Assembly: GCA_016839765.1 (NCBI GenBank)
Contig: JAEOTP010000024.1
Span: 1 to 36,235, forward strand
Origin: Promethearchaeota archaeon
GTDB taxonomy: Archaea > Asgardarchaeota > Lokiarchaeia > Sigyniarchaeales > SOKP01
Direction of reading: 5' to 3'
Length of the DNA: 36,235 nt
Part shown: one piece after another, positions 5,189 through 36,226 of the stretch
Layout: the number at the start of each line of letters is the position of its first letter
Numbering within the stretch: the stretch's first letter is position 1
Notes under the pieces: generated by a model
Databases searched by the model: none
What the model saw: only the letters and a program-made list of their open reading frames with translations
What the model was told of the DNA's origin: nothing
Program-made: the position numbers and the translations under genes

Positions 5189-6463
5189 ATGAGTTCGGTT
5201 GTTGAAATGAAAAGTAACGACTTACAGATTTATAAAACTAAAAAATTATTAGATTATTTAAAAGGTAAAAAAGGTTTTCATACTGAGTTGGTATCGTTAT
5301 ATATTCCTCACGATAGAAAAATTTCAGATGTGACTAATTATCTGAAAAATGAAGTTAGTGAAAGTCAAAATATTAAATCAAAATTAACCAGAAAAAATGT
5401 ACTTGATAGTATTGCAAGTCTTTTAGGCCAATTAAAAAATGTAGATTCCAGTCCAGAAAATGGAGTAATCATGTTTTCTGGAGCAATCCCCCAAAACAAT
5501 ACTCCAGGTACAGAGAAAAATGAGTTATATATTGTAGATCCCCCAGAAAAAGTTAAAACATTTAGGTATCACTGTGCAAGTCAATTTTTATTATGGCCTC
5601 TAGAAGAAATGCTTGTGCCAAAGGATACTTATGGTCTTCTTGTTATCGGAAGACAAGAATCTGCTGTTGGTTACGTAAAAGGAAATCATGTTGAGATTGT
5701 TAGAGAATTTACCTCAGGAATTCACAGTAAGCATAGAGCAGGAGGTCAATCCCAGAAAAGGTTTGAAAGATTAATTGAAGAGGGGGAAAAACAATTCTAT
5801 AGGAGAATATCTGACGAAATTAATGAACTCTTTTTAGAAATGGAAGATTTAAGGGGGATTTTTATCGGAGGGCCGGGCCCATCGAAAGAAAAGTTTGTAA
5901 ATGATGAAAGTATGGATTATAGATTAAGGGAGAAAATATTAGATGTAGTTGATCTTGGATATGGAGGATCTGAGGGAATTCGTGCGCTTATTAATAAAGT
6001 CAAAGATAAAATTCAAGATGTAAAGTATATTCGTGAAAAACAAGTTATGCAAAGATTCATGAAAGAAATTGCTAATGATACTGGAATGGCAACTTATGGT
6101 CTTGAAGATGTACAGAAAGCATTAAATATGGGTGCTGTTGATACCTTAATACTCTCTGAAAAATTAGATACTTATAAAGTTAGGATAGAATGTTCTAATT
6201 GTGGTTATATTGAAAATCGTAACACAAGTGAACAGAATATTGCTAATTTAGAGTCTTCTATACAAGAAGAAAGTTGTCCGAAATGTAATTCAAATACCTT
6301 TAATATGACTGATAACATATCGATGATAGAAGAACTTGGGGGTATTGCAAATACAATGGGAACAGAAATAGATATTATTTCTTCTGAAACTGAAGAAGGA
6401 GAAATGTTACATAGCACTTTTGGAGGTATTGTAGCTATTTTGCGTTTTAAACTTAACTATTAA
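5189..6463 (+). CDS. prf1: Peptide chain release factor aRF1
   Basis: ELVSLYIP, NIKS, YxCxxxF, KH.AGGQS..RF.R, Zn mini-domain (CSNC..CPKC), FGGIVAILRF. ATG at 5189 preferred over TTG at 5180. Confidence 0.97.
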   Translation: MSSVVEMKSNDLQIYKTKKLLDYLKGKKGFHTELVSLYIPHDRKISDVTNYLKNEVSESQNIKSKLTRKNVLDSIASLLGQLKNVDSSPENGVIMFSGAIPQNNTPGTEKNELYIVDPPEKVKTFRYHCASQFLLWPLEEMLVPKDTYGLLVIGRQESAVGYVKGNHVEIVREFTSGIHSKHRAGGQSQKRFERLIEEGEKQFYRRISDEINELFLEMEDLRGIFIGGPGPSKEKFVNDESMDYRLREKILDVVDLGYGGSEGIRALINKVKDKIQDVKYIREKQVMQRFMKEIANDTGMATYGLEDVQKALNMGAVDTLILSEKLDTYKVRIECSNCGYIENRNTSEQNIANLESSIQEESCPKCNSNTFNMTDNISMIEELGGIANTMGTEIDIISSETEEGEMLHSTFGGIVAILRFKLNY

Positions 6464-11312: not shown

Positions 11313-11447
11313 AGCGGGGTGGGCTAGCCTGGTTTATGCCGCAGGGCTCATATATGGTTTTTCCCATCCATAGAGACACCCTGAGATCGTTCTTCCACGC
11401 TCGAAAGAACGGCAGACTCGTTCGTTCAAATCGAACCCCCGCTACCA
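11313..11447 (+). tRNA. Initiator tRNA-Met(CAT) with two introns (11353-11377 at 37/38; 11387-11417 in the variable loop, about 46/47); CCA encoded
   Basis: AGCGGGG/CCCCGCT acceptor stem with A1-U72, CAGGG/CCCTG anticodon stem with three G-C pairs, CAT at 11349-11351, T-arm GTTCG-TTCAAAT-CGAAC, ACCA end. Removing both inserts gives a standard cloverleaf. Confidence 0.93.
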
Positions 11448-20082: not shown

Positions 20083-20736
20083 TTCTGCAGAGTTTATTGC
20101 TTTTCTTACGAGATTATGAATTTTTATTTTAGATTCGTTATTTTGGATTTCATGCAATTTTGCATGGGTTTCAGGAAATTGTGGATTATAATGGCATGAA
20201 ATCGATAAATTTGAACTAATTTCATATAAACCAAGCTTCTTATTCAAATTAATAACTTCTAACTTATCCCATCCAATAAGAGGCCTCATAATCACATAAT
20301 CTCCAATGAGATTATTGTATGCATATATATTGTCTAAGGTTTGACTAGCTTGCTCCCCTAAAATATCTCCAGTAACTATTAGATTTGTGTTTTCTATTTC
20401 TGCAATTTGGATTGCGATTCGTATCATTAGTCGTTTACATAGAATACATGTTAATTTTCTTTCACATAATTGTTTTAGTAGATTTAAATTGAAGTCTTGT
20501 TGAATAAAGTATATTTTAGACTTAGTTTTTCCATATTTCGCTAAGATTTTAACTATTTCAACAACTTTTTCCTTCATTATTAGATTTTGATTATTAAAAG
20601 TCAAAAAAGTTAGAAATACTGGATGGAAGTTTTTTTTTATCATTAAATATGCTGCTACAGGGCTATCTAAACCTGTTGATAATAATGAAACAATTTTCTT
20701 CACATTTTGTCCCGAGTTTTTTAAATTATTTAGCAA
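20062..20736 (-). CDS. ThiI-like PP-loop protein (catalytic domain only, no THUMP domain)
   Basis: LLSTGLDSPVAAY, CILCKR.M, VTGD.LG.QASQT..N, RPLIG.DK.E, C...P..P.T. The start may be GTG at 20703. Confidence 0.87.
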   Translation of the reverse strand: MLNNLKNSGQNVKKIVSLLSTGLDSPVAAYLMIKKNFHPVFLTFLTFNNQNLIMKEKVVEIVKILAKYGKTKSKIYFIQQDFNLNLLKQLCERKLTCILCKRLMIRIAIQIAEIENTNLIVTGDILGEQASQTLDNIYAYNNLIGDYVIMRPLIGWDKLEVINLNKKLGLYEISSNLSISCHYNPQFPETHAKLHEIQNNESKIKIHNLVRKAINSAELLEFHI

Positions 20737-21319
20737 TTATTTCTTTCCGATCCCATTTTTTTAAATAATTATTAAAATTTTCTAGTGTAATTTCACGTGG
20801 AATTATGATCTTTCTTTCATATTCCAATTTTTTTATTTTTAACTGTAATTTCTTGTTTTTTTGGTAGAATTTTTGCGCCTTTGGGAATTCCTCTTCAAAT
20901 ACTTTTTCTAATTGTTTTATATCTATATCGTTTAACTCTTCGTAATTATTAATAACATAATTACATAATGGATCTATTGATATTTGAAAATTGAAGGCAT
21001 CTATACGTTTTAAAGCTAATGGATATGCTTGACAAGCTATTGGTTTTTTTTCATGTATTATGCAGCCTTTTGTAGGATTATAAAAGGGACACCTCTTTTC
21101 AGAATTATCTAAATTTATTTTATATGTAATAACAATAATTTCCTTATTTTTTATATCAGGAAATACTAAATCTTCTATTACGCTAAATTTAATGTCTTTT
21201 TTTTCAGCAACTTCTATTAAATAATCAACTTCTTCTGGATAAATAGGTATCCTTTTTGAACCTGGATTTTGAGTAATTTCATGACAACAAGTCCCACATT
21301 TTAAACATTGATATCTTAT
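20726..21319 (-). CDS. YkgJ-family cysteine-cluster (CxxCxxCC, Fe-S/Zn) protein, 197 aa; absent from the ORF track, apparent ATA start
   Basis: Manual translation gives IRYQCLKCGTCCHE...CPFYNPTKGCIIHEKKPIACQAYP...DPLC...KWDRKEIIAK*. The frame is open for 594 nt and has an in-frame TAA immediately before the ATA. Confidence 0.88.
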   Translation of the reverse strand: MRYQCLKCGTCCHEITQNPGSKRIPIYPEEVDYLIEVAEKKDIKFSVIEDLVFPDIKNKEIIVITYKINLDNSEKRCPFYNPTKGCIIHEKKPIACQAYPLALKRIDAFNFQISIDPLCNYVINNYEELNDIDIKQLEKVFEEEFPKAQKFYQKNKKLQLKIKKLEYERKIIIPREITLENFNNYLKKWDRKEIIAK

Positions 21320-35177: not shown

Positions 35178-35519
35178 TTATTTTTTATATGAACTTTTCA
35201 TCCTTTCCTGAATTAATATATTTTCTTCTGGAAACCCCAAATCCATTAAGAATTTTTTGAGTTTAAATTTATGATCTCCTTGAAGTTCAATTTCATTTCC
35301 CCTTACTGTTCCCCCAGAGGCACACTTTTTTTTTGCTTTGGTTAAAATATCCTTCAAATTAGCATCAAAATTACCTTCAAATTTGATGACTGTAACCACT
35401 CGCCCCCATTTTCTTCTGTCATTAGTAATAATTATTTGTTGTTCGTCAGCACTTAAACTATCACATATACATAGCTCTTTCGGAAAACTACATATAGGAC
35501 AAATCTCGTCGTCTTTAAT
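35178..35519 (-). CDS. Translation initiation factor aIF1 (SUI1 family), 113 aa, apparent ATT start
   Basis: Extending the 73-aa track ORF upstream gives IKDDEICPICSFPKELCICDSLSADEQQIIITNDRRKWGRVVTVI...KKKCASGGTV...IELQGDH, the full archaeal SUI1 pattern. An in-frame TGA at 35529-35531 bounds the frame. Confidence 0.93.
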   Translation of the reverse strand: MKDDEICPICSFPKELCICDSLSADEQQIIITNDRRKWGRVVTVIKFEGNFDANLKDILTKAKKKCASGGTVRGNEIELQGDHKFKLKKFLMDLGFPEENILIQERMKSSYKK

Positions 35520-35695
35520 ACTCTTTTTTCACAACCTTTTATATTAAAAACTTAATATAGTACAGTATAAAAAATAATAGAATAAAATCTTATAAAAATC
35601 TTTTTTTTATTTTATGATTTTATCGTTAAACAATATTATAAAAATAAATTCTTTCATATTATTATTAGAAAAATTCTTTATGATTAAGTTTAAAA

Positions 35696-36226
35696 ATGTT
35701 TAGCTCATGGATCTTTAAGGTAATTATAGCGGGTGCAGGTGGAGTAGGTAAAACTGCCATGGTTACTCGATATTGTACCGGTAAATTTGAAGAGGGGTAT
35801 AAGATGACTATAGGAGCTGGTTTTCATACAAAATCAGAAACCCTTGATACAGGAGAAGCTGTCAAAATGCAATTATGGGATTTTGCCGGAGAAAAACGTT
35901 TTCGTGAACTATTACCAGATTATTGTAAAGGTGCAAGTGGCGCTTTCATTTGCTTTGATATAACAGATTATGACACGTTTAGAGATATTCCTGAATGGTT
36001 AAGAATTATACGCCAAAAAGCAGGTTTTATTCCTATAATCCTTTTAGGAATGAAATGGGATCTCGATAATCATGAGGTTGATTATAATGTGGCCAATGAT
36101 TATGCTGGAAAAGCAAAATGTAATCAATGTGTTTACAGCTCTTCTAAAGAAAATATCAATGTTAATGAATCATTTCAAGCAATGGCGAAATGGTTGATTT
36201 ATTATGCTAAACAATCCGAAACTTAA
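35696..36226 (+). CDS. Rab/Ras-like small GTPase (Asgard type)
   Basis: GAGGVGKT (G1), YKMTIG (G2), QLWDFAG (G3), G.K.D (G4), SSK (G5); no C-terminal prenylation cysteines. Confidence 0.93.
   Translation: MFSSWIFKVIIAGAGGVGKTAMVTRYCTGKFEEGYKMTIGAGFHTKSETLDTGEAVKMQLWDFAGEKRFRELLPDYCKGASGAFICFDITDYDTFRDIPEWLRIIRQKAGFIPIILLGMKWDLDNHEVDYNVANDYAGKAKCNQCVYSSSKENINVNESFQAMAKWLIYYAKQSET

Follow-up and report, generated by a model that had tools for sequence, protein, structure and literature searches.

The gene for translation initiation factor aIF1 (SUI1 family) of this Loki-type Asgard archaeon very probably begins at AUU, not AUG, judging from comparison with its relatives. The account that we regard as likely on the whole has three parts: an AUU-started aIF1, lineage-wide use of AUU, AUC, and AUA (AUH) as start codons, and a possible negative feedback of aIF1 on its own synthesis. 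Coordinates refer to the window, i.e. the whole stretch of 36,235 nucleotides that was analysed. The features of the gene and its 5′ end are as follows.

35178..35519, minus strand: aIF1/SUI1 coding sequence, from ATT to the TAA stop, 113 codons plus stop
35517..35519, minus strand: ATT, inferred aIF1 start codon, based on conservation among relatives and the stop just upstream
35529-35531, minus strand: in-frame TGA upstream of the ATT, with three codons between the two
35530-35532, minus strand: GTG, out of frame (+1 relative to the aIF1 ORF)
35524..35529, minus strand: A6 run; the run is not conserved, the frame is
35397..35399, minus strand: GTG, first canonical in-frame start, 40 codons downstream of the ATT, used by gene finders
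35463..35501, minus strand: zinc-knuckle codons CPxC...CxC (Cys 7, 10, 17, and 19), aligned to EICPRCGLPKELCVC of M. jannaschii aIF1
35229..35444, minus strand: SUI1 domain, residues 26-97 (Pfam PF01253, E = 7.6e-17)

At the 5′ end of the gene, the minus strand reads AAAAGG TTG TGA AAA AAG AGT ATT AAA GAC GAC GAG ATT TGT CCT ATA TGT. Between the TGA and the CPxC motif there are no in-frame ATG, GTG, or TTG codons. The positions that the first-pass annotation gave for the ATT, the TGA, the out-of-frame GTG, the A6 run, and GTG 35399 are all correct when the sequence is re-read. On sequence grounds, the ATT-led product is a typical archaeal aIF1. In particular, when the protein is read from the ATT, the PF01253 match spans profile positions 2-77 of 77, and the NCBIfam PRK00939 match, in which residue 4 falls on model position 2, scores 110 bits against a cut-off of 98 bits. 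M. jannaschii aIF1 (PDB 4MO0, also in 5JB3/5JBH) aligns from its residue 3 (E = 6e-24), and all four knuckle cysteines are matched between our protein and residues 3-17 of 4MO0.

A start at GTG 35399 would remove the zinc knuckle. If aIF1 were truncated or decaying, only the 73-aa SUI1 core from this GTG would be made, and that is the product in the mechanical ORF list and exactly the one that standard gene finders predict (P0077). However, strong purifying selection with third-position bias acts on the 40 upstream codons, which encode the four-Cys knuckle of the solved aIF1. Over the first 40 codons after the ATT (75 distinct relatives), the mean per-site entropy is 0.19 at the first codon position, 0.08 at the second, and 0.79 at the third. 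By this evolutionary signature, the N-terminus downstream of the ATT is translated, as the first-pass annotation held when it counted 40 conserved residues lost from GTG 35399. In addition, the gene encodes a core initiation factor, and the genome of this archaeon (3.32 Mb, 96% complete) has one copy of it. We consider a truncated product highly unlikely.

The public aIF1 calls that we compared (P0006, P0013, P0015, P0016, P0026, P0028, P0037, P0047, and P0077) disagree with one another. NCBI annotation starts aIF1 of several relatives at the ATT (MKDD.ICP...) and that of one relative (P0028) at the second ATT, the codon immediately ahead of CPxC. The JGI and ENA callers give shortened products of 73-90 aa, P0077 among them. 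The second ATT was rejected as the start: orthologues whose canonical starts lie farther upstream conserve Ile/Val at this codon, so the start must sit upstream of it, and the coding signature already begins at the first ATT. The NCBI name for the archaeal protein here is that of the bacterial "stress response translation initiation inhibitor YciH".

To describe the close relatives, we use 80 named public loci from MAGs titled Promethearchaeota archaeon (including Loki_b31 and Loki_b32), which give 70 distinct sequences. The start codon is ATT in 67 and ATC in 3 of them. An in-frame stop lies 1-3 codons before the start in all 70, with a canonical start in between in none, and the spacer between an upstream box and the start is exactly 9 nt in 70/70. 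The AUU initiation that the first-pass annotation proposed finds strong comparative support, and the Shine-Dalgarno (SD)-like element that it placed about 9 nt before the ATT is correctly described. One relative reads TGA TAA TAG AGC ATT, leaving a single open codon ahead of the ATT. The arrangement of GGTTGTGA, 9 nt, and ATT AAA GA was seen repeatedly, in 18 and then in 34 genomes of the same genus as well as across the family. A non-canonical start is forced, with no in-frame ATG, GTG, or TTG from the upstream stop to CPxC, in 62/70 family loci. Kept to this extent, and in 70/70 distinct close relatives, the arrangement goes beyond chance. In the other 8/70, the GTG of the box is in frame (the spacer is 8, or the genus is g12), and a GTG start is possible there. 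ATG is absent from the aIF1 start codon in the ~140 family loci examined. Orthologues that generally start with ATG, which the first-pass annotation named as counter-evidence, are therefore not what the family presents.

Two side observations concern the loci collected. A second aIF1 copy with ~60-64% identity occurs in several family genomes (G005:C60:41196-41516, G007:C23:10882-11208, G044:C222:16424-16744, and others); these copies could be paralogues or come from co-binned relatives (contamination 4-9%). Loci 88-95% identical to the Loki-type aIF1 gene also turn up in records (L221, L222, L228, L233, L238, and others) whose titles name Odinarchaeota, Thorarchaeota, Hodarchaeota, Hermodarchaeota, and even "Nanopelagicaceae bacterium"; these taxon labels look wrong.

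Immediately upstream of the ATT lie three further features.

35520..35528, minus strand: 9-nt spacer AAAAAGAGT, fixed in length and free in sequence
35529..35538, minus strand: invariant box AAGGTTGTGA, an imperfect Shine-Dalgarno element that holds the in-frame TGA and the out-of-frame GTG
35537..35560, minus strand: AT-rich, partly conserved TATA-like blocks, candidate promoter of the aIF1 transcript from the alignment

The spacer varies among relatives (AAAAAGAGT, AGAAAGAAC, AACAAGAGT, ATAAAAAGT, AAAAGGAGT, TAAGAGAGC, TAATAGAGC, and others), with a per-site entropy of 0.3-1.24 and codon periodicity in neither frame (75 distinct relatives). This variation bears on the A6 run. Homopolymer errors are common, and a 1-nt deletion to A5 would bring GTG 35532 in frame, so an assembly or sequencing error could in principle have created the problem. 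But the same frame and the same 9-nt spacing recur in 70/70 independent assemblies, and in many relatives the A-run is broken by G, C, or T (GTGAAGAAAGAAC, GTGAAACAAGAGT, GTGATAAGAGAGC) with frame and spacing unchanged. The error is thereby ruled out for practical purposes, its probability being negligible. The first-pass annotation had named an A5 reading as the observation that would overturn its claim; the comparison contains no A5 variant that places GTG in frame.

The same spacer bears on a reading in which translation starts at GTG 35532 and the aIF1 frame is reached either through a +1 frameshift or because ribosomes terminate at the TAA within T ATT AAA and re-initiate at AUU. A GTG mini-ORF of 5 codons, its TAA overlapping ATT-AAA, is present in 66/70 close relatives. 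Termination-reinitiation occurs in archaea and may tolerate weak restart codons. However, genus g17 has GGAAGGAA, without GTG, genus g16 reads GTG ACA TAA, and the mini-ORF is 14 codons long in three g21 genomes. No slippery site is conserved, the codon before the stop varies (TAT or CAT), the spacer has no coding periodicity in the GTG frame, and GTG 35532 lacks an SD of its own, AAAGG abutting the GTG. On the evidence of g17, g16, and g21, together with the missing shift site and periodicity, the GTG mini-ORF with frameshift or re-initiation was rejected as a general mechanism, a prfB-like programmed +1 frameshift included. Every GGTGA-type SD includes GTG, and the mini-ORF can therefore be seen as a by-product of the SD. 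We regard translation from GTG 35532 as very improbable and retain direct initiation at the ATT.

The box itself has an entropy near 0 across relatives, and its 8-mer GGTTGTGA is identical in 69/70. GGTTGTGA pairs with the SD consensus GGAGGTGA at 6/8 positions, and the two central mismatches are invariant in 69/70 relatives (GGAGGUGA is the repaired form of this SD). The 3′ end of 16S rRNA in this genome is the canonical GGATCACCTCCT. For SD 5-mers genome-wide, the GGAGG end peaks 7-10 nt from the start. The aligned SD spacing of aIF1 is 12, versus a mode of 9 for other AUH starts and a genome optimum of 7-10; a long spacing is also found in the TTG-start aIF1 orthologues of the sister family. 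We infer an SD role for the aIF1 box, given a spacing that is long for this genome. Judged by pairing and spacing, the aIF1 ribosome-binding site appears unusually weak compared with those of other AUH genes. RNAalifold on 23 leaders found no conserved RNA structure: the consensus fold (-2.7 kcal/mol) has 0 compensatory pairs and leaves the SD and the start unpaired.

The sequence of the box has two further peculiarities. AAGGTTGTGA holds an in-frame TTG-TGA "start-stop". Elsewhere in the genome, AGGTTGA (AGGTGA with an extra T) is found 5-8 nt before ATG starts at 337 sites (e.g. C11:22582, C14:3449, and C33:96217). AGGTTGA could be taken for a Shine-Dalgarno variant with a bulge, and GGTTGTGA of the aIF1 box resembles it.

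The gene upstream of aIF1 (35696-36226, plus strand) is divergently transcribed. The transcript might be leaderless or have a very short leader, with the AT-rich block as TATA box and AAGGTTGTGA as a promoter-proximal or operator DNA element instead of an SD. A partly conserved AT-rich block is indeed located 18-31 nt upstream of the ATT, about 25 nt away. The box also shows stricter conservation than an SD would require, at a spacing that is long for one. Several points stand against this. Leaderless initiation is expected to rely strongly on cognate AUG. The other AUH starts of this genome follow clear SDs with a sharp spacing optimum. An unmistakable AGGAGG lies 9 nt ahead of the aIF1 start in other Asgard families, and TATA-like strings are everywhere at 30% G+C. 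A leaderless mRNA is improbable in our estimate, and the box is better read as an SD element.

In other Asgard families, the position of the start is kept and the codon changes. The sister family f2 has TTG (g2, g9), GTG (g10, g11), or ATG (g8) where the ATT aligns, and in genus g5 of that family this codon is ATA with an in-frame TGA just upstream. Family f4 has ATG at the aIF1 start. ATG is also the start in f5, f10, f14, f15, f20, f22, f23, f25, and f27, and GTG in f7, f12, f19, f26, and part of f9. Three or four f9 genomes have CTG, with an in-frame stop 1-2 codons upstream. ATA is found in f11 and f17 behind AGGAGG + 9 nt, and in one f16 genome behind AGAGGT + 9 nt. A Shine-Dalgarno element is present 9-10 nt before the aIF1 start in all Asgard families compared, and the GGAG(TGA) or AGGAGG of other families occupies the position homologous to the aIF1 box. 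The AUU start of aIF1 is well supported because sister lineages and other Asgard families place TTG, GTG, ATG, ATA, and CTG at the same codon. By this alignment, the place of the aIF1 start is fixed while its codon shifts between weak and near-cognate ones, as expected if the marked codon is the start. The alignment of aIF1 5′ regions suggested in the first-pass annotation shows ATT/ATC conserved in close relatives; beyond the family, AUU gives way to ATG, GTG, TTG, ATA, and CTG. Within f9, the start toggles between GTG and CTG at one aligned codon (L141, L144, L145, and L140 versus L139, L142, L143, and L146).

Weak or near-cognate aIF1 starts occur in at least 6 Asgard families, about 6/24. 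For comparison, the starts of aIF1A in 13 Asgard families (L189-L218) are TTG in 8, GTG in 1, and ATG in 4. No near-cognate aIF1A start was found in these 13, which include families whose aIF1 uses ATA or CTG. The two aIF1A paralogues in this genome (C47:4912-5118 and C63:901-1107) both start with ATG. The contrast between aIF1 and aIF1A is suggestive only, the families being few and not independent.

To find AUH starts genome-wide, we consider codons that lie at most 10 codons from an in-frame stop, have at least 100 open codons downstream, and have no canonical start within 12 codons; a hit has an exact SD 5-mer at an aligned spacing of 7-11. The G+C content of the genome is 29.7%. The results are as follows.

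ATT: 25 hits at 486 positions, 4.2-fold over controls (p = 3e-9)
ATC: 9 hits at 138 positions, 5.4-fold over controls (p = 5.5e-5)
ATA: 10 hits at 348 positions, 2.4-fold over controls (p = 0.011)
Pooled control codons: 74 hits at 6084 positions, 1.0-fold

The AUH excess amounts to ~30 cases, versus 241 canonical starts in this genome under the same SD criterion, and the AUH hits have a sharp spacing peak at 9. In the following genes, Pfam matches precede or straddle the first canonical start.

C17:40284-41243, plus strand: TFB, ATT; zinc ribbon at residues 22-60, first canonical start at codon 36
C17:132496-133455, minus strand: folE2, ATC; profile positions 2-260 at residues 6-302, first canonical start at codon 60
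C96:75689-77494, plus strand: ABC ATPase, ATT; Walker A region precedes the first canonical start
C87:10435-11352, plus strand: zinc-ribbon protein, ATT; ribbon at residues 4-25, cut at the first canonical start

The test also recovers the CxxC protein "ykgJ" (window 20726-21319, minus strand), for which the first-pass annotation had proposed an AUA start: its ATA directly follows TAA, with AGTGAT 4 nt upstream, 197 open codons, and the next canonical start 164 codons on. For an intron-bearing initiator tRNA that had been noted near 11313-11447, ARAGORN gave no hit. Taking enrichment, spacing, and domain matches together, we conclude from sequence that AUU, AUC, and AUA are genuine start codons in this Lokiarchaeial family.

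It follows that the atypical start is not specific to the gene of a fidelity factor: by the genome-wide SD test and Pfam, AUH starts serve dozens of genes. Nor is the conservation of the ATT special to aIF1. The unrelated folE2 is conserved just as well, having ATT or ATC behind GGTGA + 6 nt in 27/30 family loci and ATG in 3/30, with ATG in the sister family. Since AUH starts are common and folE2 is equally conserved, the fact that aIF1 keeps its AUU does not by itself indicate feedback. These data favour a reading to which we give nearly an even chance, namely that AUU starts aIF1 without regulatory meaning, selection on the third position of start codons being relaxed and aIF1 being one of dozens of AUH genes. 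ATT, ATC, and ATA are all enriched behind SD motifs, TFB, folE2, and the ABC ATPase require AUH starts, and because folE2 keeps ATT/ATC in 27/30 family loci, long-term AUH conservation needs no tie to initiation fidelity.

On the other side, any preference of aIF1 for AUG over AUU would make feedback automatic. Weak aIF1 starts are found in several unrelated Asgard families, and none is found for aIF1A. The aIF1 gene combines AUU with an invariantly mismatched SD and an over-long spacing, whereas the SDs of other AUH genes are strong and optimally spaced. Finally, ATG is unseen at the aIF1 codon in the ~140 family loci.

In our account, the ribosome is probably positioned by the imperfect SD box GGUUGUGA, 9 nt upstream of AUU 35519, and the initiator tRNA would read AUU with a third-position mismatch, aIF1 being one case of the lineage-wide AUU/AUC/AUA starts behind SD motifs. 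The feedback, if it operates, could work as follows. aIF1 would reject mismatched start codons, its own AUU included. With AUU, a weakened SD, and a long spacing, aIF1 synthesis would then drop as the aIF1 concentration climbs, a negative feedback resembling those of bacterial infC and eukaryotic eIF1. The premise has a biochemical precedent in S. solfataricus, where aIF1 blocks 30S complexes on AUU mRNA in vitro (PMC4705826); its discrimination against AUU is also described in PMC6237735. Should any of the discrimination seen in S. solfataricus, the one archaeal system tested, remain here, an AUU-led aIF1 mRNA would be repressed by its own product; where AUU starts are routine, aIF1 may hardly select against them.

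Autoregulation is less compelling than the first-pass annotation thought, because AUH starts are routine in this genome. We hold selected autoregulation of aIF1 to be possible, at somewhat short of even chances. Four comparisons favour it. The repeated use of weak or near-cognate codons to start aIF1, in at least 6 Asgard families, and the absence of near-cognate aIF1A starts in 13 families are both suggestive only. It is plausible that the weaker aIF1 initiation region (6/8 SD pairing, spacing 12 versus 9 in other AUH genes) and the lack of ATG at the aIF1 codon, set against 3/30 ATG for folE2, point the same way.

A broader version of this idea is more tentative still. A homeostatic loop acting through the aIF1 AUU might set the translation of all AUH-start genes (~1-3% of the genome, including TFB). 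A deliberately weak start on a fidelity factor would then occur in all three domains, and the recurrent ATA, CTG, and ATT at aIF1 in at least 6 Asgard families might reflect repeated selection for the loop among the archaea nearest to eukaryotes.

Bacterial infC, which encodes IF3, starts at AUU and is translationally autoregulated (PMC4705826, PMC4611024). As in infC, a codon-rejecting factor is encoded here by a gene that starts at AUU after an SD, relatives retain the codon, and the negative-feedback logic would be identical if it is real in aIF1. In contrast, IF3 is unrelated to aIF1 as a protein, AUU starts in E. coli are almost confined to infC and pcnB while AUH starts occur here in dozens of genes, and the feedback of infC is experimentally shown, whereas that of aIF1 is a proposal. 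Eukaryotic eIF1 has an AUG in poor Kozak context and is autoregulated (Ivanov et al. 2010, as cited in PMC6237735 and PMC4705826). Within the SUI1 family, eIF1 and aIF1 are homologues, and the mechanism turns on a deliberately weak initiation site carried by the mRNA of the fidelity factor itself. But the eIF1 codon is a cognate AUG, poorly flanked and used in a scanning system, and the aIF1 studied here uses a near-cognate codon that would be positioned by an SD. The characterised archaeal aIF1 proteins (M. jannaschii 4MO0, P. abyssi 30S 5JB3/5JBH, and S. solfataricus) have the same SUI1 domain and four-Cys knuckle, and the alignment covers the whole protein.

The set of start codons, AUG plus AUH, has its own parallel. 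Animal mitochondria use AUA and AUU starts read by tRNA-Met with a modified C34. The likeness lies in the same start set and in relaxed third-base reading by Met-tRNA; the difference is that mitochondria are an organellar system with a changed genetic code.

The reviews and primary papers searched give AUG, GUG, and UUG as archaeal start codons (e.g. PMC7531240), and for an Asgard tubulin gene a "rare ATT start codon" is noted in a 2026 paper (PMC13394414). We found no description of a near-cognate aIF1 start or of aIF1 autoregulation in archaea in the literature searched, in which eIF1 and IF3 autoregulation appear only as parallels, not for aIF1. The first-pass annotation was aware of no such case described in archaea. 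This appears to be so for the regulatory idea within that literature, but the ATT start is already implicit in public annotation, NCBI having placed it in relatives.

One consequence holds regardless of feedback. Because AUU, AUC, and AUA are genuine starts in this family, Prodigal-type gene calls truncate aIF1 to 73-90 aa, and they truncate TFB, folE2, and others as well. If the feedback is real, archaea would control their own start-codon stringency as bacteria do through IF3 and eukaryotes through eIF1. Such control would have been found in the lineage closest to eukaryotes, acting via the eIF1 homologue itself, and the evolution of start-site fidelity control would become directly testable.
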